In this document: one piece after another, positions 30,178 through 53,952 of the stretch
Layout of the letters: each line of letters begins with the position of its first letter
How positions within the stretch are numbered: the stretch's first letter is position 1
From: Candidatus Aquilonibacter sp.
Lineage (GTDB): Bacteria; Verrucomicrobiota; Verrucomicrobiia; Limisphaerales; UBA11358
Length of the DNA: 64,000 nucleotides
Direction of reading: 5' to 3'
Assembly (NCBI GenBank): GCA_035504945.1
Contig: DATJRH010000031.1
Span: 3,018-67,017, forward strand
Notes under the pieces: model-generated
What the model was told of the DNA's origin: nothing
The model's database searches: none
The model's input: the letters and a program-made list of their open reading frames with translations, nothing else
Program-made: the position numbers and the translations under genes

Positions 30178-30197
30178 TGGCGTGGCATGGATGAAAA

Positions 30198-32004: not shown

Positions 32005-33272
32005 CTGTGAATTGACGAAACCAGTTTGAACAGCGGCAGGAAAATGCTCAACAGCAGGAAGGCCACGACAATACCCATGACGACAATCAGCGCCGGCTCG
32101 ATAAGTTGCGTCATCAGGCGCAGCGCGATTTGCAATTCGCTCTCGTATGTGTCGGCGAGATTGTTCATCGCGCCCGGCACGTCGCCTGTTTCCTCGCCGA
32201 TGCGCACGAGGTCAATCATCAGTTGCGGGAAAATCTTGCTGTGCGCCATCGGCTGCGCGAGCGTTTTGCCATCCGTGACCGCGTCGTGCGTTTTGGCGAC
32301 GGCCTCTTTGATGAGACGGTTGGACAGGACGCGCTCGGTAATTTTCAAGGCCGTCAGCACCGGCACGCCGTTTTGCAGCAGCGTGCCGAGTGTTCGCGCA
32401 AATTGCCCGAATAGATTCAACCTCACCACCTTGCCGAAAACCGGGGCTTTCATCTTCCATTCGTCCAGCATCCTTCCCCCGGCTTCGCTGGCCTTGAAGC
32501 GATAAAATAAAATAACTGTGACGATGATGAGCAGCACAAGCAGCCACCAATAGCCGAGCAGAAAATTGCTGATGTCGATCAGCATCCGCGTTGGCAACGG
32601 CAATTCGATGTTGAAGCCCTGGAAGATGAGTGTGAACTGCGGCATCATGAAAAACATGAAGAACGCGATCAGCAGCAGGCCCATGCAAATCACCAGCACC
32701 GGATAAATCATCGCCGAGGACAACTTCGCCTGCACCTCCGCAAACTGCTGGAAATGGGTCGCCATGCGCCGCAACACTTCCACCAGCGAGCCGCTCTGCT
32801 CGCCCGCGCGCACCATGTTGATATACAAATCCGAAAAAATGCGCGGCTGCTTCGCCATCGCGTCCGACAAGCCTTTTCCCTCGCTCACCTCCTGCTTCAA
32901 ATCGCGGCTCACCTCGGCGGGAATGCCCTTTGATTCAAGGTGCGTCATGCTGTTGAGCGCGACCGTCAACGGCATCCCCGATTGGAGCAAATTGGCCAGT
33001 TGATGCGTGAATGTCGCCAGCTCCTGCAACTTCGGTTTGCGCTTCTGCTGCAGTTGCGCGCGCAACGTCGGCGGCAGTAACGCGAGCAAGTCCACCTGCT
33101 GACCATTGCGTTTGCCGCTGGCTGCCGCGCCCGCCTTGGCTGTTTCCACGGCGATGGGAAAAAGTCCGAGCCGCTGGATTTGCATCAGCGCCGCCGGACG
33201 GTCAGCCACGTCCAAAACCCCCTCGACCAGTTCACCACTGCGGCGCCGCGCCTTGTAAGAAAATTCCGGCAT
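32001..33272 (-). CDS. gspF: Type II secretion inner-membrane protein GspF/PilC
   Basis: FTHQLANLLQSG, AGEQSGSL, AMIYP, GEETGD, IEPALIV. Confidence 0.92.
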   Translation of the reverse strand: MPEFSYKARRRSGELVEGVLDVADRPAALMQIQRLGLFPIAVETAKAGAAASGKRNGQQVDLLALLPPTLRAQLQQKRKPKLQELATFTHQLANLLQSGMPLTVALNSMTHLESKGIPAEVSRDLKQEVSEGKGLSDAMAKQPRIFSDLYINMVRAGEQSGSLVEVLRRMATHFQQFAEVQAKLSSAMIYPVLVICMGLLLIAFFMFFMMPQFTLIFQGFNIELPLPTRMLIDISNFLLGYWWLLVLLIIVTVILFYRFKASEAGGRMLDEWKMKAPVFGKVVRLNLFGQFARTLGTLLQNGVPVLTALKITERVLSNRLIKEAVAKTHDAVTDGKTLAQPMAHSKIFPQLMIDLVRIGEETGDVPGAMNNLADTYESELQIALRLMTQLIEPALIVVMGIVVAFLLLSIFLPLFKLVSSIHS

Positions 33273-36213: not shown

Positions 36214-36642
36214 TTAAGAAGGCAAATCCTTACCGGTCGTTGTTACTGTCAATTTGCCGTGTTTCACGCCTTTGGCCGAAATCAAGGCGTCCGCGATTTT
36301 GCGGATCAACGCCGCCTTGCCGCGCACGAGCAGCACTTCCAGACAATTGTGATGGTCAAGATGAACATGCACTGTCGAGAGAATCACGTCATGGTGATCA
36401 TGCTGGATGTCCGTAAGCGCGGCTTGAAGGTGGGGTTTGTGATGGTCATAAACCAGCGTGATGGTGCCGACGATGTCTTCATTGCCAAATTTTTGCCGGT
36501 GTTCGACGAGGCGGTCGCGAATCATATCGGCGATGGCCAACGAACGATTATCGTAGCCCTTCTCGCCCGACATTTCATCCAGTTGCCGCAACAGCGACGG
36601 CGGCAGGGACACGCTGAAACGGCTGACGGTTTCTTTATTCAT
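36214..36642 (-). CDS. nikR: Nickel-responsive transcriptional regulator NikR
   Basis: RFSVSL ribbon-helix-helix, NRS.AI.D.IR, YDHH, QH, HVHLDHHNCLEV Ni ligands. Start ATG 36642. Confidence 0.95.
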   Translation of the reverse strand: MNKETVSRFSVSLPPSLLRQLDEMSGEKGYDNRSLAIADMIRDRLVEHRQKFGNEDIVGTITLVYDHHKPHLQAALTDIQHDHHDVILSTVHVHLDHHNCLEVLLVRGKAALIRKIADALISAKGVKHGKLTVTTTGKDLPS

Positions 36643-36660
36643 GGCAAATTCAATTGCCAC

Positions 36661-36688
36661 ATCGTAATTCAGTCGGCCATCGTGTCAA
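36661..36688 (-). promoter_or_regulatory. Sigma70-type promoter of nikR
   Basis: Minus strand TTGACA-N16-TACGAT, ending 18 nt before the ATG. Confidence 0.55.
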
Positions 36689-36746
36689 ACTCGGAGCAGC
36701 CAAATTGAATCGAAGTCAGTTTCAGGCTTTGCCAATTTGCCTGCGG

Positions 36747-38987
36747 TCAAAATGTTGCGGTCAAGCCAACCCGCGCCTGAAGCGGTTCGACCGGATGGAA
36801 AACATCCTGGAATGTTGGCGTGGCCGTTGGCGTAACGCGCGAGACATAGGCATAATCAATGTCGTGGTCGTGACGGTCAAGCAGGTTCAAAACCTCGACA
36901 GAAATGCGCCATGTTTTGTTGATTTGGTAGCCAGCTTCGGCATTTACCAAAATCGTTTGGTCGGAGCGATAAATTCCGTCCGAGGTCAAATCGCGCGGGC
37001 CGAAATAGCGCAGCCGGAGACTTGACGAAAAGCCATGCCAATCATGCAGCGTAATGCCGGAGGCAATCACCAACCCGACCGCTTCGGGCACATGCGTGCC
37101 GCCGGGACTGCCCGGTGCGGCATCATCGGCGTCCACCGATGTAAATCGGGCGATGGAATCCGCCATGTCAAAATCAAACGCCAGATGCTTTGTCAGCATA
37201 TAGTAATTTGCCCATTCGATGCCATAACGGTTGCTCGGCGATTTTGAAGGAACAGTGCCGCCAGTGTCGCCGTCCTGTTGCAATTCGGATTCGCTGTAAA
37301 GATACCAGAGCGAAACGGTGCTTTGCAGATGTGGCAGGACCAACGTGCGAACACCAACTTCCGCGCCTTTGGTCTGGATCAACGCGGGGATTTTCGCAGA
37401 CGGCGTTCCTGGATAAGGATTGTCCGCCGAAACTGGTTCCTCGGTTTGTGTCGCGCCGCGACCGTCGTTGCTGTGAAAGCCAAAACCGCCTTGCACATAA
37501 AACTCCGTTTTAGCCCACGGGCCGAAAATCAAGCTCAACTTGGGGCTGGGCAGCAGACTGTAAGCGGTGCCGGAGTTGGCCGGATTGTTAAGACAGGTGA
37601 CATCAAAATAGTCCAGGTCGCCGCGTAAGGCCGCGACGGAGCGGAATTTATCCCCCCACTGAACCTGATTCTGCACATAAAGACCAACTTGCGTATCCGT
37701 AAAATCATCGGCTTCTGTTGTGGCGGGCAAGATGGTGCCGGTTGCCGAATCCAGTTTCTCCACGCGCACGCGGTCTTCCGTTTGGTAAAGGCCGTTGTCA
37801 ATCCAGTCATTACGAACTTGTAGGCCAATCGTGTTTTGAACATCGCGGTGAAACCATTCGTTGAACAGGGTGTGACTTGCGTCAAGACCGGCCACCCAGC
37901 GATTGTCCTGCTGCTCAAATTGGTCGCCTTGGTTCGTGTCCGTGAGGAAATAAGTGAAATCGGAAAACAAGTCGAGGTAGTAATAAAATCCATAGGCCAT
38001 GACGTGCGTTTCAGAATTTTCATCCTGATGATGCCATTCAGCTTGCAGGCTGTAGCGTTGTGAATTGCCGCCGTCCGTTGGATTGATGGCACCGAAAAAA
38101 TTCGTTGCGCCGAAGCTGGCAGGGATTTGGTCGCTCGAATTCCATTTCCCATGATAACCAAGCGCCGTGACGCTGAATCCATTCACCTCATCGCCCTGGC
38201 TGTAGGTTAAAATGCCGTTGAATTTGGAATAGTCATCGGGATGCACCCAGGGACCGTCATCATGATACACTTCGCCGCCGTAAAGAATGTTGCCCGCGCC
38301 AAGTTTTTGCGACGCGCCAAACACGCCACGTTCAAAACCATACATGCCGCCTTGCACGGTAACGAAGTCCTGCGGTAGGGTCTGGTAAAACACGATATGG
38401 GCTGCACCCGCCGAACCAAAATCGCCCACATCCGCGTAGTAAGGACCTTTCTCGTAATCAATCCGCTCAACGAATTCAGGAATAACGATGTTCATGTCCG
38501 CGTAACCTTCGCCATGTGCGTGTGACGGCAGGTTCAATGGCATTCCATCAAGAAATATGGCGAAATCCGTGCCGTGATCCAGATTGAAGCCGCGCAGAAA
38601 ATACTGGTTGGCCTTTCCGCCGCCGGCGTGTTGTGTGATAATGACGCCCGGAACGGTTTCGAGAATCTCGCCGCTGCGCAAAATGGGGCGGTCGGCCAGT
38701 TGCGCCGCACCGGTCGTGCCCTGACTCGCGGAGGTGGCGATGCCGAGCAGGCTGTCCTGCCGGCCCACCACAGTGATGTCGGGCAAACGGACGACATGGT
38801 TGGTGTCAGCCGCTGGTTGGTTGGAAACCGTGTTGGCGGCGGTTTCGAGGTTGGTAAGGGTTTGGGCGCTGGCAATTCTGGCAGCGACAATTCCGCAGAA
38901 ACCAAAGGCCGCAACGCGAAGAATGGCTGTCCAAGCCCGGTGAAAAATCCGCGCTTGACCCGAATCTGAAATAAATGTTACGTTCAT
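36747..38987 (-). CDS. TonB-dependent receptor, probable nickel/metal uptake
   Basis: Plug ITQHAGGGKANQYFLRGFNLDHGTDF, HAHGEGY, KGPY; C-terminal Phe; between nikR and NiCoT. Start uncertain (ATG 38987 preferred to TTG 39044). Confidence 0.85.
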   Translation of the reverse strand: MNVTFISDSGQARIFHRAWTAILRVAAFGFCGIVAARIASAQTLTNLETAANTVSNQPAADTNHVVRLPDITVVGRQDSLLGIATSASQGTTGAAQLADRPILRSGEILETVPGVIITQHAGGGKANQYFLRGFNLDHGTDFAIFLDGMPLNLPSHAHGEGYADMNIVIPEFVERIDYEKGPYYADVGDFGSAGAAHIVFYQTLPQDFVTVQGGMYGFERGVFGASQKLGAGNILYGGEVYHDDGPWVHPDDYSKFNGILTYSQGDEVNGFSVTALGYHGKWNSSDQIPASFGATNFFGAINPTDGGNSQRYSLQAEWHHQDENSETHVMAYGFYYYLDLFSDFTYFLTDTNQGDQFEQQDNRWVAGLDASHTLFNEWFHRDVQNTIGLQVRNDWIDNGLYQTEDRVRVEKLDSATGTILPATTEADDFTDTQVGLYVQNQVQWGDKFRSVAALRGDLDYFDVTCLNNPANSGTAYSLLPSPKLSLIFGPWAKTEFYVQGGFGFHSNDGRGATQTEEPVSADNPYPGTPSAKIPALIQTKGAEVGVRTLVLPHLQSTVSLWYLYSESELQQDGDTGGTVPSKSPSNRYGIEWANYYMLTKHLAFDFDMADSIARFTSVDADDAAPGSPGGTHVPEAVGLVIASGITLHDWHGFSSSLRLRYFGPRDLTSDGIYRSDQTILVNAEAGYQINKTWRISVEVLNLLDRHDHDIDYAYVSRVTPTATPTFQDVFHPVEPLQARVGLTATF

Positions 38988-39044
38988 GTAAAATAGTATT
39001 ACCAATGCCTCAAGTGTTACGCAACATAAAAATAGTATTACCAA
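38975..39044. promoter_or_regulatory. Two tandem putative NikR operators
   Basis: 30-bp imperfect direct repeat with 39-bp period: ATGTTAC-N14-GTATTAC (38975-39002) and GTGTTAC-N14-GTATTAC (39014-39041). Confidence 0.7.
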
Positions 39045-39180
39045 CAGCGTGAGTTTGTATTTAAGAATGCTGTAGATTGGTTTATAAATAGCGAAACAGC
39101 GGCAAAATTGGTGTTATGAAAGACAATAATCGTGTGAAGATTTCTGTTGCGCGAGGGCGGCAAAAAGGGAAAATTCAATC

Positions 39181-40248
39181 ATGCAAATTGAAGGCGCGAC
39201 GGCAGCAATGAAATCTCCCGGCAACTTGAAGGGCCGGATTGTTGCCATGTATGCGCTGCTCATCGCGGCCAATGCCGGCGCATGGATTTGGGCGCTGGTT
39301 GCCTTTCATGATTATCCGATTCTGCTGGGCACGGCGCTGCTGGCCTACACATTCGGCCTGCGCCACGCGGTGGACGCCGACCACATCGCGGCGATTGACA
39401 ACGTGACGCGCAAGCTGATGCAGCAAGGCAAACGGCCGGTTGGCGTCGGCTTCTTTTTTTCCCTCGGCCATTCGACCATCGTGGTCGGTTTGTCGGTCGC
39501 CATCGCCCTGACTTCCGTGGCCATCAAGAATCGTTTCAATTTCTTCGAAGCCATCGGCGGAATCATTGGCACCGCCGTCTCCGCATTTTTTCTTCTCGCC
39601 ATCGCCGCCGCGAACCTCATCGTGCTCAAATCGGTCTTTCAAACTTTTCAACGCGTCAAAAGCGGCGGCCGGTTTGTGGACGAGGACCTCAACCTGATTC
39701 TCGCCCAGCGCGGATTTTTCGGACGCATTTTTCGGAATTTGTTCCGGCTGATTGAGCATGGCTGGCAGATGTATCCCATCGGCCTTCTGTTCGGCCTTGG
39801 CTTCGACACCGCAACCGAGGTCGGCCTGCTCGGCATCTCGGCAGCGGAAGCGACCAAAGGTCTTCCGATCTGGTCCATCCTCGTTTTTCCGGCGCTGTTC
39901 ACGGCGGGCATGGCGCTGGTGGATTCGACCGACAACATCCTGATGCTCGGCGCCTACGGCTGGGCTTTCGTGAAACCAATCCGCAAACTTTATTACAACA
40001 TGACCATCACCTTTGTTTCAGTCGTGGTGGCGCTGCTGATTGGCGGAATCGAAGTGCTGGGACTGATTGGCGATCATCTCCAAACCCACGGCGCGCTTTG
40101 GGACATCATCGGCTACTTAAACAACAATTTCGGTGTCATCGGGTTCGTCATCATCGGCGTCTTCGCGGGAAGCTGGATTGTTTCGCTTCTCATTTACCGG
40201 ATGAACCGCTACGACGAAATCAAAGTGAACACCGATTCCGCCGCCTGA
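39181..40248 (+). CDS. High-affinity nickel/cobalt permease (NiCoT; HoxN/HupN/NixA family)
   Basis: GLRHAVDADHI signature, FFSLGHST, LGFDTATE; about 8 TM helices. Start may be 39208. Confidence 0.94.
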   Translation: MQIEGATAAMKSPGNLKGRIVAMYALLIAANAGAWIWALVAFHDYPILLGTALLAYTFGLRHAVDADHIAAIDNVTRKLMQQGKRPVGVGFFFSLGHSTIVVGLSVAIALTSVAIKNRFNFFEAIGGIIGTAVSAFFLLAIAAANLIVLKSVFQTFQRVKSGGRFVDEDLNLILAQRGFFGRIFRNLFRLIEHGWQMYPIGLLFGLGFDTATEVGLLGISAAEATKGLPIWSILVFPALFTAGMALVDSTDNILMLGAYGWAFVKPIRKLYYNMTITFVSVVVALLIGGIEVLGLIGDHLQTHGALWDIIGYLNNNFGVIGFVIIGVFAGSWIVSLLIYRMNRYDEIKVNTDSAA

Positions 40249-40254
40249 AATTTT

Positions 40255-41064
40255 TCAACCCGGACGCCGGTAACCTTGCAAATCCACCGTCACGTGCGCG
40301 TAGCCGATTTCCTTGAGCGCCGCCGCGACTTGTTCAGCCGTGCCATTGCCAAGAAATTTCGGCAATTCCGCCGGGCCAACTTCGATGCGGGCCAGCCACG
40401 TCGGATTTTTTCCCAATTCATGGTGTCGCACGCGCACGTCGTGGAAGCCAAGATCGCGCAAAACATTTTCTGCTGCCTCAACCATCCGCAACTTTTGCGG
40501 GCTGACGATTTCGCCCTGCGGAATGCGCGAGCTCAAGCAGGCCATCTGCGGCTTGTCCGCCGTCGGCAGGCCGAGTTGCGCCGACAATTCGCGGATTTCC
40601 GCCTTCGTCAAGCCAACCTCCTTCAACGGCGCGCGCACCTGAAATTCGCCCGCCGCTTTTGCGCCCGGACGAAAATCGCCGAGGTCGCTCGCGTTTTCAC
40701 CATAGGCAATCACCGAAAAATTTTCGGCCCTGGCGATGGCCGTGAGTTCCTCGAACAACTCGTGTTTGCAAAAATAACAGCGGTTGGCCGGGTTCGCGGT
40801 GTAGTCGGGATTTTCAAACTCCGCAGTCTTCACCACGCGGACGGGAAATTTGAATTGCTCCGCGAGCGCCAGTGCTTCCTTCAATTCGCGCCGCGGCAGA
40901 CTGGGTGAATCGGCGATGACGGCCAAAGTCCGTTTACCCAAAACATCATGCGCCACGCGGGCGAGAAACACCGAATCCACGCCGCCGGAATAGGCGACGA
41001 GACACGAACCGTAGCCGCGAATTTGTTCGCGCAGGCGGTCGAGTTTGTTGGCGACGTGCGTCAT
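40255..41064 (-). CDS. larE: NPN cofactor sulfur transferase LarE
   Basis: PP-loop AYSGGVDS, RCYFCK, D.RPG, ACLSSRIP, VRVRHH. Confidence 0.93.
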   Translation of the reverse strand: MTHVANKLDRLREQIRGYGSCLVAYSGGVDSVFLARVAHDVLGKRTLAVIADSPSLPRRELKEALALAEQFKFPVRVVKTAEFENPDYTANPANRCYFCKHELFEELTAIARAENFSVIAYGENASDLGDFRPGAKAAGEFQVRAPLKEVGLTKAEIRELSAQLGLPTADKPQMACLSSRIPQGEIVSPQKLRMVEAAENVLRDLGFHDVRVRHHELGKNPTWLARIEVGPAELPKFLGNGTAEQVAAALKEIGYAHVTVDLQGYRRPG

Positions 41065-42317
41065 GATTTCAATTGTTTTGCGTTTTTGATGGCCGCGTCG
41101 TAAATCTGTTTCAATGGAATTTTGTTCCGCTCCGCCAATTCCCGGCAGGATTCAAATTCCGGCGCGGCCTGAATCACTTTACCACCAAGCCGGCCAATTT
41201 TCACCGTGACTTTTCCGAACGGTGTTTTGACCTCGGCAAATTCCCGGCGCAATTTCCGCCGCTCGGCGATGGTCCGGCGCACGCCGAACGCCGTGGTCTC
41301 GTGCAAAATCATTTCGGAAAATTTGTCCGCAGCCGTTTCCGCGCACAAAACCGTCAGCAAAACTCCGGGACGATTTTTTTTCATCTGGATCGGCGTGTGA
41401 AAAACGTCCAACGCGCCGGCGGCGAGCGCGGTTTCGACAAAATGGCCGAGAATTTCGCCGACGCAATCGTCGAGGTTCGTTTCCAAAACTGCAATTCGAT
41501 CCGTTTCCCAATCCAAGCTTGCCGAGATTTTGGATTGCGCGCCCAGCACGGCGCGCAAAACATTCGGACGCGACTTGTTCTCGCGCGTGCCGAGGCCGAA
41601 GCCGATTTTTTCTGCCGTCAAATTCTCCATCGGGCCGAAGCTTTCGGCAAATTCCGCGAGCAGCGCCGCGCCGGTTGGCGTGATAAGTTCGTGCGGCTCG
41701 TCGCATTGCGTGACGCCGATGCCGCGCGCGCCGAGAATTGCCAGCGTCGCGGGCGCGGGAACGGGAAACCGCCCGTGTGCGCAGTCAATCCAGCCGGTGC
41801 CCTCGACGACGGGCGCGGCGAGCACGCGCGGTTTGCCGAGCAATTCCAGCGCGATGCAAGCGCCGACGATGTCCACTATGGAATCCACCGCGCCGACTTC
41901 GTGAAAATGGACTTCTTCCGGCGGCAGCCCGTGGATTTTTCCCTCGGCCTCGGCGATGCGATGGAAAACAGCAATGGATTTTTGTTTCACCCACGCCGAC
42001 AATTTGCTGCGCGAAATCAAATTTTTGATTTCGGAAAAATTCCGGTTGTCGTCGTGATGATGGTGATGTTCGTGGTGATGACCGTGATCGTGGTCGTGAT
42101 AGTGTCCGTGTTCATGCGCGTCCGCCAGATGAACGTCGAACTTGACGCCTTCGATGCCGGATTTTTGCCGGCGCGCAATGTGCAAATGAAAATCGTCCAG
42201 CTTCAATTTCGCCAGCTCGCGTTCGAGCTTTTCCTCGTCCACGCCCAAATCAATCAGCGCGCCGATGAACATGTCGCCGGCGATGCCGCTGAAAATGTCG
42301 AGGTAAAGCGTTTTCAT
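41061..42317 (-). CDS. larC: NPN cofactor nickel insertase LarC
   Basis: YLD.FSGIAGDM, His-rich tract, HFHEVGAVDSIVDI, PVPAPAT, TPTGAA, ETNLDD, MKKNRPG, PEFE. Confidence 0.95.
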   Translation of the reverse strand: MKTLYLDIFSGIAGDMFIGALIDLGVDEEKLERELAKLKLDDFHLHIARRQKSGIEGVKFDVHLADAHEHGHYHDHDHGHHHEHHHHHDDNRNFSEIKNLISRSKLSAWVKQKSIAVFHRIAEAEGKIHGLPPEEVHFHEVGAVDSIVDIVGACIALELLGKPRVLAAPVVEGTGWIDCAHGRFPVPAPATLAILGARGIGVTQCDEPHELITPTGAALLAEFAESFGPMENLTAEKIGFGLGTRENKSRPNVLRAVLGAQSKISASLDWETDRIAVLETNLDDCVGEILGHFVETALAAGALDVFHTPIQMKKNRPGVLLTVLCAETAADKFSEMILHETTAFGVRRTIAERRKLRREFAEVKTPFGKVTVKIGRLGGKVIQAAPEFESCRELAERNKIPLKQIYDAAIKNAKQLKS

Positions 42318-43069
42318 TTTTCGATGAGCGCATTTATCTGCGCCGCCGCGAATCCCGCGCCGAAGCCGTTGTCAATGTTGACGACCGTCACGCCGCTGCC
42401 GCAACTGTTCAACATGCCGAGCAGCGCGGCCACGCCGCCGAAGCTCGCGCCGTAACCGATGCTGGTCGGCACGGCAATGACCGGCTTGGAAACCAGGCCG
42501 GCGACGACGCTTGGCAGCGCGCCTTCCATGCCGGCGACGACGACGAGCACGTTCGCCTTTTGAATCGTTTCCAATTTGCCGAGCACCCGGTGCAAGCCGG
42601 ACACGCCGACATCGGCCACGCGCTCGACGCGATTGCCCATGATTTCCGCCGTCACCGCCGCTTCCTCGGCCACGGGCAAATCGCTCGTGCCGGCGCAAAT
42701 CACCACGATGACGCCGGGCCGTTTCGGCAGCGGCTTTTCCTCGATGGTGACGCAGTGCGCAAGTTCGTGATGGACGGCGCGCTTGAATTTTTTCCGCAAC
42801 TGCCGCGCCTGTTCCGGTGTGACACGGGTGACGAGAACGCGACCGTCGTGCTGGAGCAGATTGGCGGCGATTTTCAAAATCTGCGCGGAAGTTTTGCCTG
42901 CGCCGAAAATGACTTCGGGAAAACCCTTGCGCAGGGCGCGATGCGTGTCCACGCGCGCGAAGCCGAGGTCGGCGAACGGCGCGGCCTGGAAAGCGCGCAA
43001 CACTGCGTCGCGGCTGGTCTTTCCGGCGCGAAACTGGTCGAGCAATTTGGCGGCTTCGGTGGTTGTCAC
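42314..43069 (-). CDS. larB: NPN cofactor carboxylase/hydrolase LarB
   Basis: D.HR..RKGFPEV, AGTSDLPVAEEA, DVGVSGLHR, AGMEGAL, PTSIGYG, NIDNGFGA. Confidence 0.95.
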   Translation of the reverse strand: MTTTEAAKLLDQFRAGKTSRDAVLRAFQAAPFADLGFARVDTHRALRKGFPEVIFGAGKTSAQILKIAANLLQHDGRVLVTRVTPEQARQLRKKFKRAVHHELAHCVTIEEKPLPKRPGVIVVICAGTSDLPVAEEAAVTAEIMGNRVERVADVGVSGLHRVLGKLETIQKANVLVVVAGMEGALPSVVAGLVSKPVIAVPTSIGYGASFGGVAALLGMLNSCGSGVTVVNIDNGFGAGFAAAQINALIEK

Positions 43070-43133
43070 AACTTAACCATGTCAGAGAACCGCCGTGCCG
43101 TCACGCCGGAAATCAAATGCGCGGCGTTTCGAT

Positions 43134-46100
43134 TTACTGCAACTGAAGCCGGAAGAACAACTGGGAATTGGTGGCCGGCAGATTGGTGCAACTGAAATTG
43201 CCGCCGGCATCGAAGCAGTTGCTTGAAACAATCGTCCAATTGCTCAACGGCAAAGTGAGGTCGGTCGAGCACAAAACATAGTAATTCCAATTGGCGACGC
43301 CGTTGCTGCCGCAGAAATTAAGACTGTTTCCGTTCATCGTCAACCCGGCGAAGACCGGCGGCGGTGTTGGCGAGGCGACGACGCTCAACGAGCCGCTGCT
43401 CAAGGTGCTTGTGTCCCATGCGAGGTTGAGTCCCGGAATCGCCGGAATGATGTTTGTGAACGCGCCCGAATAGCCGGCGGCATTGAACAGCTTGAAGCTG
43501 TCGCCAGCGGCATACGAGCCGCCGAGATTGGTGATGACCAGCGTGCCGCCGTAAGTCACTGTGCCGGTGACCTGCGCGAAGTCGCTCTTCAATTGCGATT
43601 TGCTGATTCCCATCCGCGTGACGCTGCCGCCGTTCAACGTGAGATTGTTATTGAAAGTCATCGTCGTCAACGCGCCGCCCGGCGCGAGTGTCGCGCCGTT
43701 GCCGACAACAACATTTCCGCTGACCGTGCCGTTGCCGGTCAGGCTCTGGCCGTTGGCCAAAGTCAGCGTGCTGTCGATACGCGCGCTCGTGTCCAAGGTT
43801 GTGCCGGAGGCAACGGTGATTAACGGACTGTTCGCGAAGGCACCGTTGCCGCTCAAGGCCAGTCGTCCGGCGTTGATGGTCGTGTTGCCAGTGTAAGTGT
43901 TCACGGCGGTGAGGGTGGCTGTGCCGGAACCGTTCTGCATCAAAACGCCGTTGCCGGAAATGATTCCCGACAAAGTCTGCGCCGCAGAACTGCCGAAGTT
44001 GAAAATGCCGTTGTTGGTGATGTTGCCCGCATAAGAGCCATTGCCCAATTTCCCAGCGCCGCCAATTGTCAACGTGCCGCCGGTGATGATGGTGTTGCCG
44101 GTATAAGTGCTGGTTGCGGTAAGAACGTTGCTTCCGCGGCTTACCAGCAGAATGCCAGAGCCGCTGATGGCGTTGGCGACAGTGGCGCCCTGGCCGCCGG
44201 CGAAACTCAAAGCGGCGTTGTTGGTCACGTTCCCCGTGCCCAGCGGCGAGGTCCATGCGCTGGTGTCGTTGGCCGCACCCACTTGAAGCACGCCATTGCT
44301 GACGAGCGTGCCGCCAGTGTAGGTGTTGTTATTGTCCAAGGCCATGACGCCGTTGCCGGTTTTGATAATTCCCGTGTCGCCTTCGGAGGTGCCGTGAATC
44401 AAAGAGCCATAGACGATCAAATCAACACCGCCGGCCGTGCCGCCGTTGGTCACATTGAAAATGGTCCCGCCGGTTTCGCTCGGATCCGGCCAGCAATTGG
44501 TGATAACGGAGGTGATGGGCGCCGGCGGATTTCCGACGGCGAGGCCGCCGTCCAAATCCCAGGTGCCGTATTTGGTGTCATTCTGGTAATTGCCGTTCAT
44601 CGTCAGTGTGCCGCCGTTGAGCGTCAGCAGGCCGCGAAGATGGCTGTTGGAGCCGTTGCCAGTGTCGGCTGAAGCCGGGCCGGTCAATGTGCCGCCGGCG
44701 TTGATGGTCACTGGCAAGGTGTTGGCGGCACCGGAACCGCTCAAGGCGTTGTCAATGTTGATTTGAACAACAGCATTGGAATTGATGGTCAGCCGGCTGC
44801 TCTGATAAATGCCACTATTTGCGCTGTTGGCTCCGCCCAAGGCAAGCGTGCCGGAGTTAACGATGGTCGGGCCGGTAAATGTTTCGGCATTGCTCAAGGT
44901 CAACGTGCCGGGACCGTTTTGAACCAAAGTGCCGGAACCGGAAATAACCGCGTAATTTGTCTGCGACGTCGAAGTGCTGTAATTCAGCGTGCCGTTGTTG
45001 AGGATGGTCGCGACGGCGGTGCTCTGATCGTAACTTGCGCCGTCCAATTGTCCCGCACCGCCAATCGTCAGCGCGCCGCTGTTGTTGAGGTTGCCGGTAA
45101 ATGTGTTCGCGCCATTCAAATTGACCGCGCCGTTAAATGTCAGCGTCGCGCTGCCGGGGCCGGAAATGGCTCCCGACAGCGTGAGCGGGTTGGCAGAATT
45201 GTTGGCGACGGTAAGATTGGTCGTTACGGAAACCGGCGCGCTTATCGTATCGCCGGTGCTCGAAGAAAGTTGCGTCAGCGTGGCTGAATTGGTGCCGTTG
45301 AAGGTGAGCGAACCGCCGTTGGCGGCGAGGGTGTAAGCAGCCAGCCCGTTGGCGTCGCCGATTTGCAACGCGCCAATGGTGATGGGCTGGTTCAAATTGA
45401 TGGTCTGCGGCGCTGCGAGTCCGGCGTGGATGATTGCCAGTTCGCTGCTGGTGTTCGGAAACACGGTGGCGTTGGTCCAGTTGGCGTTGACGTTCCAGCT
45501 TTGCGGGCCAGAAGTAATGGTGTTATTCCAGTAAGCGGTCACAGGCGCACCCGAAACGACGAGTGATACCGTCGCGGTGTTGGTCTGGTTTCCGTCAACA
45601 CCGCTGATGAGCAGCGGATAGGTGCCCGGCGGCGTGTTGATAGAGGTGGTGATGTTCAAGGTCGAATTGCCGGAATTGCTCAACGATGGCGGAACAAAAA
45701 CGCCGTTCGCGCCGGAAGGCAGGCCGCTAACGGTAAGAGTCACGCTGCCGGTGAAGGCGCTGTTGGTCGTAACTGTGGCCGTGAAGTTTGTGGCGTTGCC
45801 TTGAATCACGATTTGCGATGATGGGCTGGCGGTGACGAGAAAGCCGCCATTCATGACGCTGATGTTCACGGCAGTGGAGGTGGCCGTGTAATTGTTCGTG
45901 TCGGTGGCCACGGCGGTCAGTGCCCAATTGCCGGCGGGCACGTTGCTCCAAGTCACGCGGTAAGGGCTGTTGCTGCTGGTGCCGAGGCAAGTGCTCGCGT
46001 TGGCATAGAAGTCCACCCGGCTGATTTGACTGTTCGTTGAGCCGGCGGCGGCTTGCAAAGTGATATTTGTGCCGGCAGGGAAAACGGAGCCGTCCGCCGG

Positions 46101-47732
46101 ATTGGTGAGGGCGACGGAAATGTCCACCGGCGCAATGGTGTATAATTCGATGCCGGTGCCGGTGCCAAGATTTCGCGAGTATTGTTTGTTGGTTGAATTG
46201 TTCCAATGTTCCCAAACGCCGAGGCTGGAGATCGGTGTTCCATCAGGTTCATAAACCGTGCCGGAATAACTTGCCCAGGAAGGCCAAGTGTTGGTGTTGG
46301 CCAAGGCCGCTTCTTCCAGGTAATTGTCGCAATTATAGCTGTCGCCACCGCCGAGGCTGGTGCCAAATTCGCTGGTCAAGAAATCTACGCCGACTGAATC
46401 AATGGCCACCGGGTCGAACGACATGAAATAACTCGACGACCACTGGCCGTTGAAGAGATTATTCCAAGCCGCGTTCGATGCCGTGACGGTGTCGTTCGCG
46501 TTTTTTGTGCCGAACAACCCGTCAATCATGAACAAAATAGTTTTGCCGCCGAGTTGTTTCGTGCCGATGAGGTCCACGAGCGGGGAATAGCGGCCCATGG
46601 TGTATTTGTAGTCGCTCAGGTAGGTGTTGTGGTCGCGGCCATTGACGCTGCCGTAATGATTTTTGGCCGTCAGTGTGACACCGCCGTTCGGATGGCCTTT
46701 CATCAAGGACATATTAACGATGTAGGTGGAATTAATCACCTGTTGGGGGATGTTGGTGCCGCCGCTGCCCGCTTCGGTGTTGACAGCGGAATATTGGAAC
46801 CCGCTGGGCACCCAAACCACTTTTTGGCAAATACCGTTCGTGCCAGCGTTGTCCATCCAAATCACGCTTGGAAATTGCGACTGGCAATAGGTGATGATGT
46901 GATTGGGAAGGTAACGAACGGCTTCATAGACCATGATTTTGTTTTGCGGCACGCCCGCTTGATTGACCAGTTCGTTGAGCATCGCCAGAACGGATTGGGG
47001 ATCGGCGTCAATTTGATTCAAATTGGTTTCGCCGGTGTTCCCGCCGTAGGCGTTGTTGCAATTGATTTTCAGGGCAATGGATTCGCCAGTCTGGTAGCCG
47101 ACGTTGCCGCGACCGTGAGTGTTGTTGTAATAATGGAAAATCAAATCCCACGCCTGGCTGTCATTGGTCCCGCCGGTCAGCGCCTGCAACGAACGCGACA
47201 TCATGCTTTCCACCACCGACTGATTGATGTTGGTCGCGTCCCAATAATGGTGGCCGTTGGCGGAAGAAGTGCCATCCCACGGCGTCGCATTGGTGTCGCG
47301 TATCCATGTGACGCGACCGGGGAAAATTCCTCTGGCCACGCCCAGCGGCGAATTGGCCGGCGGCGGGGAATAAGGCGGATTGGCTGCCATCGCACGCCAA
47401 ACCCAGGTTAGCAAAACCAACGCCATCAAAATTCCCGATCCCGTAAAGACGAGACGCCGACGTTTTTTCCACCACGCGCCCAGCCATGCCGCCAGACTGG
47501 CTTTCAAACCCAAGAGCCAGATGATGCACGTGGACGCCATCGGAAACGCCGCCTGTTGACAGGGATAGGTGGCGCGAATGGGTTTGGGAATGACGCGCAC
47601 GAAGAACCACGCCACGGACATCGCGCCCATCACCTGAACTACGAACCGGAACCAGCGCAACCGAAGGCGGGATTGTTCACACGACTGGCCGTTGGCAGTC
47701 CAATCGTGCCAGAACTTGAAGAAGGTTTTCAT
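43134..47732 (-). CDS. 1532-aa exported protein: DUF362 domain, Ig-like domains, autotransporter-associated beta-strand repeats, C-terminal domain
   Basis: RVIPKP.RA.YPCQ N-terminal motif with TM helices; GIFPGRV.W, IALKIN.NN, MKGH..GGVTLTAKNHYG, DPVAIDSV; Ig-like (VALTNPADGSVF...LTAVATD); repeated G.GTLTL...NT(Y/F)TG; C-terminal STDL..P..NW...FFRL. Confidence 0.85.
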   Translation of the reverse strand: MKTFFKFWHDWTANGQSCEQSRLRLRWFRFVVQVMGAMSVAWFFVRVIPKPIRATYPCQQAAFPMASTCIIWLLGLKASLAAWLGAWWKKRRRLVFTGSGILMALVLLTWVWRAMAANPPYSPPPANSPLGVARGIFPGRVTWIRDTNATPWDGTSSANGHHYWDATNINQSVVESMMSRSLQALTGGTNDSQAWDLIFHYYNNTHGRGNVGYQTGESIALKINCNNAYGGNTGETNLNQIDADPQSVLAMLNELVNQAGVPQNKIMVYEAVRYLPNHIITYCQSQFPSVIWMDNAGTNGICQKVVWVPSGFQYSAVNTEAGSGGTNIPQQVINSTYIVNMSLMKGHPNGGVTLTAKNHYGSVNGRDHNTYLSDYKYTMGRYSPLVDLIGTKQLGGKTILFMIDGLFGTKNANDTVTASNAAWNNLFNGQWSSSYFMSFDPVAIDSVGVDFLTSEFGTSLGGGDSYNCDNYLEEAALANTNTWPSWASYSGTVYEPDGTPISSLGVWEHWNNSTNKQYSRNLGTGTGIELYTIAPVDISVALTNPADGSVFPAGTNITLQAAAGSTNSQISRVDFYANASTCLGTSSNSPYRVTWSNVPAGNWALTAVATDTNNYTATSTAVNISVMNGGFLVTASPSSQIVIQGNATNFTATVTTNSAFTGSVTLTVSGLPSGANGVFVPPSLSNSGNSTLNITTSINTPPGTYPLLISGVDGNQTNTATVSLVVSGAPVTAYWNNTITSGPQSWNVNANWTNATVFPNTSSELAIIHAGLAAPQTINLNQPITIGALQIGDANGLAAYTLAANGGSLTFNGTNSATLTQLSSSTGDTISAPVSVTTNLTVANNSANPLTLSGAISGPGSATLTFNGAVNLNGANTFTGNLNNSGALTIGGAGQLDGASYDQSTAVATILNNGTLNYSTSTSQTNYAVISGSGTLVQNGPGTLTLSNAETFTGPTIVNSGTLALGGANSANSGIYQSSRLTINSNAVVQINIDNALSGSGAANTLPVTINAGGTLTGPASADTGNGSNSHLRGLLTLNGGTLTMNGNYQNDTKYGTWDLDGGLAVGNPPAPITSVITNCWPDPSETGGTIFNVTNGGTAGGVDLIVYGSLIHGTSEGDTGIIKTGNGVMALDNNNTYTGGTLVSNGVLQVGAANDTSAWTSPLGTGNVTNNAALSFAGGQGATVANAISGSGILLVSRGSNVLTATSTYTGNTIITGGTLTIGGAGKLGNGSYAGNITNNGIFNFGSSAAQTLSGIISGNGVLMQNGSGTATLTAVNTYTGNTTINAGRLALSGNGAFANSPLITVASGTTLDTSARIDSTLTLANGQSLTGNGTVSGNVVVGNGATLAPGGALTTMTFNNNLTLNGGSVTRMGISKSQLKSDFAQVTGTVTYGGTLVITNLGGSYAAGDSFKLFNAAGYSGAFTNIIPAIPGLNLAWDTSTLSSGSLSVVASPTPPPVFAGLTMNGNSLNFCGSNGVANWNYYVLCSTDLTLPLSNWTIVSSNCFDAGGNFSCTNLPATNSQLFFRLQLQ

Positions 47733-49041: not shown

Positions 49042-49344
49042 ATGACAAAATTACCGAAAATATGTTTGGTGGTTTCAGCAGTGACGTTTGTGATTGGATC
49101 CGCCATGTGGTTTGGCTGCATCAGCGTTGCGCCGGCATGGACGGTGGTGATGCCGATCAGCGCCATCATGTTTGGCCTTTTTCTGATCACGTTCGTGCTG
49201 GAAAAGGAAATGACCGGCTTCGACGCCGACGAAGCGAAGAAAACAAAATGGATTGAACGCAATACCACCATGCTCGCACCAGCATGGAAACCGGCGCTGG
49301 CACCGGTCCAACTCAAAGAAAAAATATTTCCGCATGATTGCTGA
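49042..49344 (+). CDS. Small two-TM hypothetical protein
   Basis: Two hydrophobic helices; GGAG upstream; overlaps the start of the radical SAM gene. Confidence 0.55.
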   Translation: MTKLPKICLVVSAVTFVIGSAMWFGCISVAPAWTVVMPISAIMFGLFLITFVLEKEMTGFDADEAKKTKWIERNTTMLAPAWKPALAPVQLKEKIFPHDC

Positions 49345-50230
49345 ACTGGCTCCAGTTTCTTGCTCCGCAGACAAGACCGTCCCGGATTTTCCCGGCTCGG
49401 CGTTTGGTCATCCGCGTCAGTTTTTAGGCAACCGCTTCGTCTACACGGTCGTGTCGCCGCGCGCGCGCGGCTTGTCCATCGGCGTGAACATGAACCCGGA
49501 CCGGCGCTGCAATTTCAACTGCGAGTATTGCGAAGTGGATCGCGCCACGCCCGCGCCGGAAACGTCGCTGGACGTGGAAGTGATGGCGGACGAATTGCAG
49601 CGCACGTTGTGGCTGGCCTGCTCCGGCGAGCTGCGAAATTTTCTTGGCTACCGCAACATACCTCCTGACTTGCTCGAACTGCGGCAGGTGGCGTTGAGCG
49701 GCGATGGCGAGCCGACGCTTTGCCCGAATTTTCTCGATGCGGTCCGCGCGGTCATCCACGCCCGCGCGTTGGGACGGTTTCCCTTTTTCAAAATCGTGCT
49801 GTTGACCAACGCGACGGGGCTGGATTCGCAGCCGGTGCAGGACGGATTGAAATTGTTCACGCAGGAGGATGAAATCTGGGCCAAGCTCGAAGCCGGAACG
49901 CAGTATCACATGAACCGCGTGAACCGCGCAAATTGTTCGCTGGAAAAAATTCTGGCGAATATTCTTTTGATCGCCCGGCAACGGCCGGTGGTTATTCAAA
50001 GCCTTTTTCCGCTGGTGAGTCCCGGGGAGCAGTCCGTCGAGGAAATTGAAGAATACGCGCGACGGCTGAATGAACTGAAACAGGCGGGGGCGCAAATTCC
50101 GCTGGTTCAAATTTATTCCGCCGCCCGCCCGACGGCGCATCCCCAATGCGGGCATTTGCCGTTGAAGGCGCTCGCGCACATCGCCCAGCGCATGCGCGAA
50201 ATCAGCGGACTGAAGGCGGAAGTTTTTTAA
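49334..50230 (+). CDS. Radical SAM protein (COG0731-like)
   Basis: CNFNCEYC (CxxxCxxC), VY.VVS.RARGLSIGVN, SGDGEPT. Start ATG 49334. Confidence 0.85.
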   Translation: MIAELAPVSCSADKTVPDFPGSAFGHPRQFLGNRFVYTVVSPRARGLSIGVNMNPDRRCNFNCEYCEVDRATPAPETSLDVEVMADELQRTLWLACSGELRNFLGYRNIPPDLLELRQVALSGDGEPTLCPNFLDAVRAVIHARALGRFPFFKIVLLTNATGLDSQPVQDGLKLFTQEDEIWAKLEAGTQYHMNRVNRANCSLEKILANILLIARQRPVVIQSLFPLVSPGEQSVEEIEEYARRLNELKQAGAQIPLVQIYSAARPTAHPQCGHLPLKALAHIAQRMREISGLKAEVF

Positions 50231-50290
50231 TCCGGCGATGGCCGGCGAACACAGAACCAGTTGAAACAACATCGACGAAAGGAAATTGTC

Positions 50291-50758
50291 ATGGAAATCA
50301 ACGCGACCAGATTGGCGGCACAACCTTTTTTCAAAGGGTTGTCCGGGCAACATCTTGAACTTCTGTTGGGCAATTCCATGCCGGTTGATTTTCCAGCCGG
50401 CAAATCAATCTTCCGCGAAGGCCAGCTGGCCAACCGCTTTTACCTCATTCTCGAAGGCGAAGTCGCGCTGGAATCAGCGGCCGGGGAAATGGACGGAGAT
50501 CCTGAACTGATACAAACCATTGGCGCGGGCGAGGTGCTCGGCTGGTCCTGGCTGTTTCCGCCGTATTACTGGCATTTCGACGCGCGCGCCGTGACGCCGG
50601 TAAAGGCCGTCTTCTTTTACGGCACACGCCTGCGCGAGCAATGTGAACACGACCACGAATTCGGTTACGAATTGATGAAGCGGACGGCCGAAGTAGTCAT
50701 TGGCCGGTTGCAAGCCACGCGCCGCCGGCTGCTGGACAAAAAGACAAGTCTGGTTTAA
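50291..50758 (+). CDS. Stand-alone cyclic-nucleotide-binding (Crp-type) domain protein
   Basis: IFREG..A..FYLI.EG.V, GEVLGWSWL, FDARA; no HTH. Confidence 0.85.
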   Translation: MEINATRLAAQPFFKGLSGQHLELLLGNSMPVDFPAGKSIFREGQLANRFYLILEGEVALESAAGEMDGDPELIQTIGAGEVLGWSWLFPPYYWHFDARAVTPVKAVFFYGTRLREQCEHDHEFGYELMKRTAEVVIGRLQATRRRLLDKKTSLV

Positions 50759-50936
50759 TCGGCGCCAAAGGACAGCAGCGGTTAGGTAGTTTTAGCTTAT
50801 TGCTGGATAAGAGTTTTACCTAGCCTACCTAGTTATTTCTCCCTAAAAACAATCAGGCGCAACCCCAATTGTTTGTTTTGCTGACTTACCTTATTTTGCT
50901 CAAGCCAAAGCAAGATTTGGCACAATTAGAAAGAAG

Positions 50937-51818
50937 ATGATTATGGCAAAACATTTAATTGAAGCGTTGGCCGGAGCAAAAATCTATCAAGACTACGAAC
51001 GGGCGTTCAGTGAGGCGACCGAGCTGCCCGTCGCGTTGCGGTCGGTGGAATCGTGGCAACTGCCGCACCACGGCAAGCGTTTTGAGAATCCATTCTGCGC
51101 GATGCTCGCGCAAAAGAGCCGCTCCTGCGCCGCCTGCCTGCAAACGCAGCAACGGCTTTCCGAAACCGCCGCGCGCGAGCCCCAGACAGTCACCTGTCCG
51201 GCGGGTTTGTGCGACGTTGCCGTGCCGGTGCGCATGGGCGACCAGTTGATCGGTTTTCTGACCACGGGCCAGGTGTTTTGCAAAAAACCAACCGAGGCGC
51301 AATTCAACCGCACGGCCAAATTGCTTGCCGAGTGGGGCGTGCAAACGAACGTCAACCAACTGCGCGACGCCTATTTTGACACGCGTGTCCTGTCGGCGCG
51401 GCAGCACGAGTCGGTCGTCAAACTCCTGACCATTTTCGCCGAGCATCTCTCGATGGTGAGCAACCAGATCATCGTGCGGGAGCAAAATGCCGAGCCGCCG
51501 CTCATCGCACGCGCCAAACAATTCATCGCCGAGCATCAGACCGAGGAGCTCTCGCTGGAGCAGGTTGCCAAGGCGGTTCATACGAGCAAATTTTATTTCT
51601 GCAAAATGTTCCGGCGCGCGACCGGCATCAATTTCACCGATTATCTTTCGCGCGTGCGCACCGAGCGGGCGAAAAATCTTTTGCTTAACCCAAACCTGCG
51701 CGTGAGCGAAATCGCCTATGAAGTCGGCTTCCAGTCGCTGACCCATTTCAACCGCGTGTTTAAGCGGATTCTCGGCCAGTCGCCAACCGATTACCGCGGC
51801 CAGCTGGTGCGGGCTTGA
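50937..51818 (+). CDS. AraC-family regulator with PocR ligand-binding domain
   Basis: NPFC..CAAC, CPAGL, GQV PocR motifs; C-terminal HTH (SEIAYEVGFQSLTHFNRVFK). Confidence 0.88.
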   Translation: MIMAKHLIEALAGAKIYQDYERAFSEATELPVALRSVESWQLPHHGKRFENPFCAMLAQKSRSCAACLQTQQRLSETAAREPQTVTCPAGLCDVAVPVRMGDQLIGFLTTGQVFCKKPTEAQFNRTAKLLAEWGVQTNVNQLRDAYFDTRVLSARQHESVVKLLTIFAEHLSMVSNQIIVREQNAEPPLIARAKQFIAEHQTEELSLEQVAKAVHTSKFYFCKMFRRATGINFTDYLSRVRTERAKNLLLNPNLRVSEIAYEVGFQSLTHFNRVFKRILGQSPTDYRGQLVRA

Positions 51819-51869
51819 GCCGGCCTCTTTTCGCGTGTTTCGGCGCCGGATTTTATTATTATCCGGCGA

Positions 51870-52985
51870 ATGGAAAATTACGGCCAGTGGACGCGCGCCG
51901 AATTGATCGAACTCGTCAAGGAATTGCAAAAAAAAGCAATGGCCAACGTGGCGCAGCAAGCCAGGCAGACCGACGCTTTGCGCGACAGCGAAGAGCGGCT
52001 GCGGGCGATTTTGGAAACGGCAGTCGAGGGCATCATCACGATTGACGAGCGCGGGGCCATCGAATCCTTCAACCCGTCGGCGGAAAAAATTTTTGGCTAC
52101 AGCGCGGACGAAGCCATCGGGCAAAATGTCAAATTGCTCATGCCCGAGCCGTATCGGCAGGAACACGACGGCTACCTTGAAAATTATCGTCGCATCGGCC
52201 GCGCAAAAATCATCGGCATCGGACGCGAAGTGTTTGGCCGGCGCAAGAGCGGCGTGATTTTCCCGATGGATTTGTCCGTGAGCGAAATGCGGCTGGCGGA
52301 CCGAAAAATGTTCACCGGCTTTGTGCGCGACATCACGGAGCGAAAACAATTGGAAAGGGAAATCATCGAAATCAGCAACCGCGAGCAACAGCGCATCGGC
52401 CAGGATTTGCATGACGGTTTGGGACAGGAATTGACCGGCATCGAATTGATGTGCCAGGCGCTCGAACAAAAACTGGAGGCAAAATCGAAGACCGAGGCGA
52501 AACAAGCCGGCGAAATCGGACAACACATCCGCGATGCCGTGTCCCACACACGCAAGCTGGCGCGCGGGCTTTCGCCGGTTGAATTCGAAGCCAACGGCCT
52601 GATGTCGGCACTGCACGAGCTGGCGGCGCACGTGCAAAAATTGTTCCGCATCGAATGCCGCTTTGAATGTGCCGAGCCCGTCTTGATTCGGAACAATGTT
52701 TTTGCGACACATTTGTATCGCATCGTCCAGGAAGCCATCAACAACGCCATCAAACACGGCAAGGCCGGACACATTCTCATTTCGCTGAAACCGGCGGGCG
52801 ACCGGTTCGCGCTGGCCGTGACCGATGACGGCATGGGATTTTCCGAGGAAACAAAAAAAAGCGGCGGCATCGGCCTGCACATCATGAAATATCGCGCGAG
52901 CGTCGTGGATGCGGCGCTCGAAGTGCGTTCGGGTGTTGACGGCGTGGGCACGGAGGTCGCGTGTATTTTCCGGAAAAATTTATGA
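51870..52985 (+). CDS. PAS sensor histidine kinase (FixL-type PAS, HisKA_3/NarX-type kinase)
   Basis: LMPEPYRQEHDGYLENY..IIGIGREV; RIGQDLHDGLGQ; YRIVQEAINNAIKH; DDGMG. Confidence 0.9.
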   Translation: MENYGQWTRAELIELVKELQKKAMANVAQQARQTDALRDSEERLRAILETAVEGIITIDERGAIESFNPSAEKIFGYSADEAIGQNVKLLMPEPYRQEHDGYLENYRRIGRAKIIGIGREVFGRRKSGVIFPMDLSVSEMRLADRKMFTGFVRDITERKQLEREIIEISNREQQRIGQDLHDGLGQELTGIELMCQALEQKLEAKSKTEAKQAGEIGQHIRDAVSHTRKLARGLSPVEFEANGLMSALHELAAHVQKLFRIECRFECAEPVLIRNNVFATHLYRIVQEAINNAIKHGKAGHILISLKPAGDRFALAVTDDGMGFSEETKKSGGIGLHIMKYRASVVDAALEVRSGVDGVGTEVACIFRKNL

Positions 52986-53689: not shown

Positions 53690-53952
53690 TGTTTGGCAAA
53701 AAAAGTGGAGTCAAAAAGAACCCGGCGCTTAAGTTGAGGCGTATGAACGCGGCGTGCGTCAGGCCGGAACCGAAATTGCTGGCCGATGTTGCTGCCCGCT
53801 TCAATGCGAGTGGCAACATTTTGCCTGAACATTCAGGGCCGGATTCGCTCTATTCCATTGAGGAAATTCATGTTCGCGCGGAAACCATGACGCCGCTGCT
53901 CAAGGAAATTCTGGATTTCCATCCTCCGGAACATTGGGAGATTAACGAGTAA
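53689..53952 (+). CDS. Hypothetical protein
   Basis: TGATG coupling with the regulator stop; no recognisable motif. Confidence 0.35.
   Translation: MFGKKSGVKKNPALKLRRMNAACVRPEPKLLADVAARFNASGNILPEHSGPDSLYSIEEIHVRAETMTPLLKEILDFHPPEHWEINE

Follow-up and report, generated by a model that had tools for sequence, protein, structure and literature searches.

A putatively exported long DUF362 protein beside larBCE in a Verrucomicrobiota genome: a candidate nickel-pincer enzyme with a predicted LarA N-terminal fold

Twelve nickel enzymes are known (PMC13524815). The cofactor called nickel-pincer nucleotide (NPN), made by the products of larB, larC and larE (larBCE), serves the racemase LarA and its relatives, among them Thermotoga maritima GntE2 (PDB 4NAR), a mannonate/gluconate 2-epimerase that depends on NPN and has R41, K164 and H180 as its cofactor residues (PMC7583248). 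LarA-like NPN binders with a single catalytic His also exist, LarABw and LarASp (PDB 9Q3J and 9Q3K; PMC12611868). NphT, which was found through its adjacency to larBCE, is a hydride transferase of aldo-keto reductase (AKR) fold that depends on the nickel-pincer mononucleotide (NPMN) and converts aldoses to a lactone and an alditol (PMC13524815). About 15% of genomes analysed in one survey carry larBCE without larA (PMC11796402). Here, we describe a computational analysis of a 64,000-nucleotide stretch (the window) of contig DATJRH010000031.1 of Candidatus Aquilonibacter sp. (Verrucomicrobiota), in which nickel-uptake genes and larBCE stand beside the gene for P0001, a 1532-aa "long" DUF362 protein of presumed export (43134..47732, minus strand; called from the open reading frame (ORF) listing and family scans). 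The reading we favour, with evenly balanced confidence, is that P0001 is an extracytoplasmic nickel-pincer enzyme that transfers hydride, with an aldose or a sugar acid as its substrate; the fold is a prediction, and cofactor, substrate and export are proposed. Genomes are numbered G###, with the host genome (93% complete) as G000, and P0122 denotes a LarA-family protein encoded on another host contig, C17.

The DUF362 match of P0001 (PF04015, aa 245-450) scores 37.9 bits against a gathering threshold of 24 (E 2.5e-9) and lies within a catalytic-type domain of aa 115-537 (46122..47390, minus strand), for which AlphaFold2 gave a model with pLDDT 93. When this model was compared by VIA-align with 48,161 chains, the top five matches were all LarA-family structures (Z 14.1, 13.7, 12.6, 12.6 and 12.1), the next family standing at Z 5.5; the LarA-family superpositions had root-mean-square deviations of 3.1-3.7 Å over 211-222 residues. 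In four of the five structures the match ends at chain residue 270-290, so that mainly the N-terminal domain is covered. Foldseek likewise placed the LarA family at ranks 1-7, yet none of these reached E 0.001, and a search of the ESM Atlas returned DUF362 clusters only. Neither Lar_N (PF09861) nor LarA_C (PF21113) matched P0001 at E 0.01, and searches of PDB sequences gave nothing meaningful with the domain and nothing at E 10 with a 92-sequence profile. The DUF362 domain is predicted from the model to have the LarA N-terminal α/β fold. The first-pass annotation of this DNA had grouped DUF362 with the LarA N-terminal domain at Pfam clan level, and this link is documented (clan CL0471, DUF362/DUF2088; PMC11770544).

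Across 266 homologues K357 is conserved in 266, H347 in 263 and H368 in 256 (codons at 46664, 46694 and 46631, respectively); K222, N224, D404, D440, D450 and E508 are further invariant polar residues of the domain. The H347-x9-K357 spacing is that of LarA H174 and K184 (numbering of PMC7583248), and in the model a strand ends at this pair and a short helix comes next. Equivalence of H347, K357 and H368 with LarA H174, K184 and H200 is plausible from this spacing and from a local alignment that falls short of significance. If it holds, the pincer would be tethered at K357 as a thioamide, as at K184 of LarA, H368 would ligate nickel as H200 does, and H347 would act as acid/base in the manner of H174. 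The LarA C-terminal substrate-binding domain with K298 was not found in P0001 (there is no LarA_C match, and four of the five structural matches stop early). As neither this domain nor a second His equivalent to His108 was detected, two-base catalysis of the racemase type looks unlikely, and oxidation or intermolecular hydride shuttling of the NphT kind would be likelier, on an aldose or a uronate/aldonate. The first-pass annotation had proposed a new class of NPN enzyme at or beyond the cell surface. The predicted fold, the LarA-like His/Lys/His spacing, the look of an exported protein and an enrichment with larB/larC argue for that class. Unlike in the NphT case, hosts with lar genes are not told from those without by the H/K/H motif, which is unchanged in lar-negative hosts.

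P0001 is likely, from its sequence features, to be exported and shown at the cell surface. Residues 1-116 (47385..47732, as all parts of the protein on the minus strand) contain three hydrophobic segments, a PKPxRAxYPCQ loop and a possible A-M-A cleavage site, and appear to form a membrane anchor/export region of presumed topology. The KKRRRLVF sequence ahead of the third hydrophobic segment is non-canonical as a twin-arginine translocation (Tat) signal and is unconserved in anchor-type homologues. Among the N termini of 261 family proteins, 173 have the PKPxRAxYPCQ loop, 20 a Tat-type signal (RRxF[LIM]) and 68 neither. The catalytic-type domain is followed by a Big_7 Ig-like domain (aa 539-607; 45912..46118; E 7e-12), a passenger-like stalk of PATR β-strand repeats (approximately 43383..45545; three stretches of PF12951, and TIGR02601) and a C-terminal tail ending in FFRLQLQ (approximately 43137..43370). 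Of 25 host-genome ORFs with the terminal motif, about 20 have a similar tail as judged by eye, and the tail is likely a surface-sorting domain; it is also weakly similar to ShdA. The Ig/PATR stalk and tail would display the catalytic-type domain on the surface. Family scans gave no match to an autotransporter C-terminal β-barrel, and P0001 does not qualify as a classical autotransporter. Folding the last 998 aa from the single sequence gave a model of pLDDT 39, which was set aside.

The closest full-domain homologues of P0001 are found in Verrucomicrobiota, and tandem long-DUF362 copies occur in genus relatives G011, G018, G043 and G049. The family as a whole is large, with 3,499 representatives at E <=0.001 and 1,195 at E <=1e-30 after clustering at 50%. 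Fusions were scanned in 52 of the best 150 homologues, picked among the longer ones, and include carbohydrate-binding modules (CBM6, 9, 35 and 96), F5/8, PA14, LamG, dockerin, type IX secretion system (T9SS) tails, glycoside hydrolase (GH) families GH1, GH39 and GH64, and one lactonase; GH28 is fused in 3 of 47 long homologues. DUF362-CBM9-dockerin proteins have been noted before (PMC5742341). Stand-alone members of 430-550 aa carry signal peptides. Same-strand neighbours numbered 92, four of them DUF362 genes themselves; the other 88 were scanned, and include GH2, 3, 28, 29, 43, 59, 88 (two) and 97 (two), 3-keto-disaccharide hydrolases (two), an SGL lactonase, UxuA and an AGE-type epimerase, together with many that have no match or unrelated matches. 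We infer that long DUF362 proteins are exported enzymes acting on sugars or sugar acids. A literature search, with subscription papers outside its range, turned up no paper in which DUF362 was tested as an NPN enzyme; the family appeared only as an outgroup of LarA (PMC11770544). Neither DUF362 nor PF04015 was found in the searched part of the NphT supplements, the remainder of which may list DUF362.

The long-domain family is enriched among genomes with larB/larC, though the association is confounded with Lar_N. Within the genus, 11 of 12 DUF362 hosts have larC, against 26 of 48 other genomes (p 0.02), the sole exception being 62% complete. One Bacteroidota order was sampled with 301 genomes, among which larB and larC fall on an identical set of 48; these comprise 28 of 47 DUF362 hosts and 20 of 254 non-hosts, an odds ratio of 17 among kin that are not independent, in a count that takes in the centre genome and two weak partial matches. 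A phylum-wide sample was uninformative (the long domain in 6 of 300 genomes, five of them with larC, on a background of 177/300). Among 77 cross-phylum hosts, some of which overlap the genus set, 30 have larC, a further 36, all of them Planctomycetota, have larB but no larC, and both genes are missing from the other 11, so that larC or larB occurs in 66 of the 77. Genome G003 (97% complete) carries larBCE and DUF362 with no Lar_N match. In an 80-genome subsample the lar-negative share was 5/18 for Lar_N genomes and 5/14 for DUF362 genomes (p 0.71); LarA-family genes therefore have a similar orphan rate, and orphan hosts neither refute nor single out DUF362. The first-pass annotation would have taken a canonical larA elsewhere in the genome, combined with a lack of co-occurrence between DUF362 and larBCE, as telling against it. 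A LarA-family gene was indeed found, but co-occurrence with larB/larC is present.

Several observations on lar gene distribution were made alongside these counts. LarA-family genes without a larB/larC match occur in Bacteroidota G383, G452, G481, G492, G496 and G511, and hint at cofactor scavenging or assembly gaps. Six Bacteroidota genomes (G462, G545, G592, G599, G696 and G701) have a divergent larB (E ~1e-55) and a larC match limited to approximately the first 230 positions of the profile, which make up a second lar-like subtype. LarC and DUF362 matches with no Lar_N occur in Synechococcus elongatus and Haloferax volcanii, and Bacteroides thetaiotaomicron has DUF362 with no LarC; the S. elongatus pattern makes DUF362 a candidate for the orphan client in cyanobacteria. 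The 36 Planctomycetota genomes (including G425, G402 and G403; loci L124-L148 and L156-L161) have larB above cut-off and no larC match (PF01969 in all, NF052512 in 5). Their larB stands mostly in a tsaD-larB-nnrD context; all 3 genomes tested for larE carry it, and LarA homologues occur in G402 (two) and in G425 (three), a single 7.5-Mb contig. No LarC hidden near larB/larE was detected by tblastn in 10 loci, and no LarC2 lay above cut-off in 5 genomes. This suggests a novel nickel insertase or a metal-free pincer in Planctomycetota.

At the locus itself, larB, encoding the nicotinic acid adenine dinucleotide carboxylase/hydrolase (42314..43069; NF033503, 304 bits against a cut-off of 175), lies 64 bp beyond the 3' end of the P0001 gene on the same strand. 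It overlaps larC by 4 bp, as larC overlaps larE, at stop/start codons; larC, the nickel insertase gene (41061..42317), has its C1 and C2 parts in a single frame (TIGR00299 and NF052512, both above cut-off), and larE encodes the sulfur transferase (40255..41064; TIGR00268, 308 bits against 150). These genes are on the minus strand, as are nikR, for the nickel-responsive regulator (36214..36660; NF003381, E 1e-56, above cut-off), and a gene for a TonB-dependent receptor (36747..39044; Plug and β-barrel Pfam matches) that by its context is likely to serve nickel uptake. The NiCoT (HoxN/NixA) nickel permease gene (39181..40248; TIGR00802, E 5e-124, above cut-off) is on the plus strand, divergent from the receptor gene and convergent on larE. 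All genes named in the first-pass annotation are present, but NiCoT is not co-oriented with the lar genes, and the block therefore holds at least three transcription units. P0001 may be co-transcribed with the lar genes. Two tandem putative NikR operators lie in the receptor/NiCoT gap (38975-39002 and 39014-39041), with 3 and 2 mismatches to the delta-proteobacterial consensus GTGTTAC-N13/14-GTAACAC (PMC545781). At <=3 mismatches there are 74 such matches genome-wide, of which four fall within the window, three in this gap and one inside nikR. A promoter and terminator scan gave counts at or below shuffled expectation. A second long-DUF362 gene has left a frameshifted remnant of its C-terminal portion upstream of P0001 (47924..48301, minus strand; tblastn matches in two frames, best E 5e-11 against a 668-bp stretch). 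Type II secretion genes (GspF, three pseudopilins and GspK; 29098-33272) stand just downstream of the locus and may offer an export route for FFRL-tail proteins. On its other side, a radical SAM gene, a PocR-AraC regulator, a PAS histidine kinase/LuxR pair and cydAB (49253-56434) suggest a microaerobic regulatory region.

The absence of larA noted in the first-pass annotation is true of the window only. The host genome has one Lar_N match above cut-off, on contig C17 (L001:7821-9116), corresponding to P0122 (431 aa), which matches 4NAR at E 1.4e-34. P0122 has R51, K168 and H184, plus H81 and H158, leaving the cofactor-binding set intact, and its gene lies upstream of a short-chain dehydrogenase/reductase (SDR) gene and uxaC, beside a pfkB kinase gene, in a cluster with a major facilitator superfamily gene. 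The Lar_N domain, the R/H/H/K/H residues and the uronate-pathway context are those of the GntE subgroup, and P0122 is likely an ordinary cytoplasmic GntE-type client of larBCE that routes mannonate to gluconate in hexuronate catabolism. Of the 60 genus genomes, 26 match P0122 and 25 of these have larC, against 12 of the 34 without a match; two of the 26 are distant LarA-family matches. With a GntE-type LarA homologue in the genome, larBCE already has a likely client, and the view that larBCE here lacked a known one is not supported. For canonical lactate racemase the host genome gave no LarA_C match, in a scan in which the T. maritima control was also negative. The search for urease and NiFe-hydrogenase proposed in the first-pass annotation matched both, through the urease alpha subunit and the hydrogenase large subunit, and the nickel importers therefore have other likely customers. 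Five AKR matches occur in the host genome; an AKR-family protein with a twin-arginine-type signal (SRRQFL) is encoded on contig C17 (L153:1306-2241), approximately 26 kb from the GntE gene.

The arrangement appears to be particular to this lineage. Among 14 genus larC loci, infC directly follows larC in 11 and a proS-like gene is upstream in 9; in three, larB-larC-larE are together in other contexts. The lar genes have at least four contexts within the genus. None of the 14 has nickel genes or DUF362. On host contig C3, proS and infC are adjacent without lar genes. The cluster is thus a recent, lineage-specific arrangement, which recruitment or accident could have produced: larB-larC would have left the usual proS/infC site and landed between a DUF362 tandem pair, whose upstream copy is now broken, and a NikR-controlled uptake pair. 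The neighbouring larBCE would, under the favoured reading, also supply the cytoplasmic GntE-type epimerase encoded elsewhere.

Several results weigh against a nickel-pincer role for P0001. Related loci were taken as the best 80 of about 600 genome stretches and the best 80 of about 600 metagenome stretches, and larB, larC, larE, nikR, NiCoT, receptor or GntE stood beside DUF362 in none of the genome loci (58 of them >=10 kb) and none of the metagenome loci (36 >=10 kb). DUF362 and lar genes lie within 20 kb in 0 of 11 genus genomes with both and in 1 of 28 Bacteroidota genomes (G527, ~15 kb). At <=3 mismatches, the genome scan placed none of its NikR-like boxes upstream of either P0001 or larB. 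The larB and larC genes are absent from 19 of 47 Bacteroidota DUF362 hosts, and five lar-negative hosts tested are without larE too; G714 and the single-contig, 100% complete G249 likewise lack larE. The H/K/H motif is unchanged in hosts without larB and larC, and in a FastTree phylogeny eight sequences, all from such hosts and with the same motif, form a clade of 95% support. In the 80-genome subsample, 9 of 9 genomes with DUF362 and lar genes also carry Lar_N, so that the two signals are inseparable, and GntE tracks larC more tightly (25/26 in the genus) than does DUF362. Local hhalign of a pre-trimmed region puts H347/K357 in register with LarA and H368 on H200, but is non-significant (probabilities 0.4% and 2%, P 0.023); this alignment has no equivalents of D72, R75 and H108, and full-profile hhalign of the P0001 family against LarA was unsuccessful, with probability 0.1%. 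The proposal is weakest at cofactor delivery, since most members look Sec-exported or membrane-anchored and no exporter was identified.

Long DUF362 proteins may instead be exported carbohydrate-active enzymes in which the LarA N-terminal fold works with a different cofactor, be it a pyridine nucleotide, a pincer precursor free of metal or a simple metal ion; larBCE would then serve only GntE, and the adjacency would be accidental. We give this an appreciable, though minority, probability. Conservation of the same residues in hosts that lack larB/larC (and, in those tested, larE as well), complete genomes and a whole clade among them, argues for it, as do the lack of synteny in 160 loci, the known-type client P0122 with R51, H81, H158, K168 and H184, the 36 Planctomycetota hosts with larB and no larC match, the at least four contexts of the lar genes in the genus, and the broken upstream paralogue, which shows local rearrangement. 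Against it stand the odds ratio of 17 for larB/larC and the comparable orphan rate of LarA-family genes; a pincer is also the simplest explanation for the invariant Lys at the tether spacing. It is improbable, on the other hand, that nikR, receptor, NiCoT, larECB and DUF362 form one dedicated module in which P0001 is a surface NPN hydroxy-acid racemase/epimerase and the main larBCE client. The 64-bp gap, the co-orientation with the overlapping larB-larC-larE, the relocation of the lar genes in the host genome and the predicted fold with its His/Lys motif would all suit such a module; against them stand the GntE-type gene, the urease and hydrogenase matches, NiCoT on the other strand, NikR-like boxes only at the uptake genes, the arrangement's occurrence at 0 of 14 genus larC loci, and the failure to find the His108 equivalent and C-terminal domain needed for two-base racemization.

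As a conserved module DUF362-larBCE is not supported: no lar or nickel gene was seen in 160 related loci, the genes are close in 0 of 11 genus genomes with both, and NikR-like boxes precede only the uptake genes. The first-pass annotation would have counted missing adjacency in relatives against itself, and the 160 loci partly bear this out; the locus itself is weaker evidence than it had held. Very improbable, finally, is a DUF362 domain without catalytic function that serves, on an adhesin-like stalk, for binding or adhesion at the surface or as a carrier scavenging cofactor or nickel. The PATR/Ig stalk, the weak ShdA similarity of the tail and the partly missing LarA catalytic set point that way, but the many invariant polar residues, the enzyme-like appearance of stand-alone 430-550-aa members with signal peptides, and fusion to CBMs, usual for catalytic modules, do not.

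In its larBCE and nickel-uptake part the locus follows known biology, and its likely client is of a known type. The wider proposal, that long DUF362 proteins are widespread secreted nickel-pincer enzymes linked to CBMs, dockerins and T9SS, which would take NPN chemistry beyond the cytoplasm for the first time and add a redox class to the carbohydrate-active enzymes, is made tentatively and falls somewhat short of balanced confidence. If it is true, a route to export or scavenge the cofactor is implied, and, for those Planctomycetota that lack larC yet have larB, larE and larA, a new nickel insertase or a metal-free pincer. If the pincer is bound, organometallic hydride chemistry joins extracellular glycan breakdown, and how the cofactor crosses the membrane becomes a question; if it is not, the family is still an uncharacterised group of carbohydrate-active proteins with a LarA fold and another cofactor.

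Compared with described systems, P0001 resembles LarA in its predicted N-terminal fold (Z 12-14), in a His-x9-Lys followed by a further His, and in membership of Pfam clan CL0471 (PMC11770544). It differs in having family-specific extensions instead of the C-terminal domain, an export signal and surface modules, and in its 6-12% identity. Neither sequence nor domain content makes the DUF362 domain a member of LarA, though it may work in a similar mode. Within Pfam DUF362 (PF04015), P0001 lies above the gathering threshold, and its exported subfamily of about 420 aa has no Fe-S module match. GntE2, the T. maritima D-gluconate 2-epimerase (4NAR; PMC7583248), resembles P0122, which is cytoplasmic, encoded on another contig and distinct from the DUF362 protein. 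LarABw and LarASp are LarA-fold NPN binders that lack one catalytic His and have a carbohydrate-related context (PMC12611868), much as P0001, with its predicted fold, appears to; they lack the His174 equivalent and keep the C-terminal domain, whereas P0001 appears to be the reverse, keeping a His174 equivalent without His108 and the C-terminal domain. NphT is a TIM barrel of no relation to DUF362, adjacent to larBCE in 427 instances, in contrast to the unconserved adjacency of DUF362 (PMC13524815), yet as a non-racemase client with a His/Lys motif it offers the closest chemical model for P0001 (PMC13524815).

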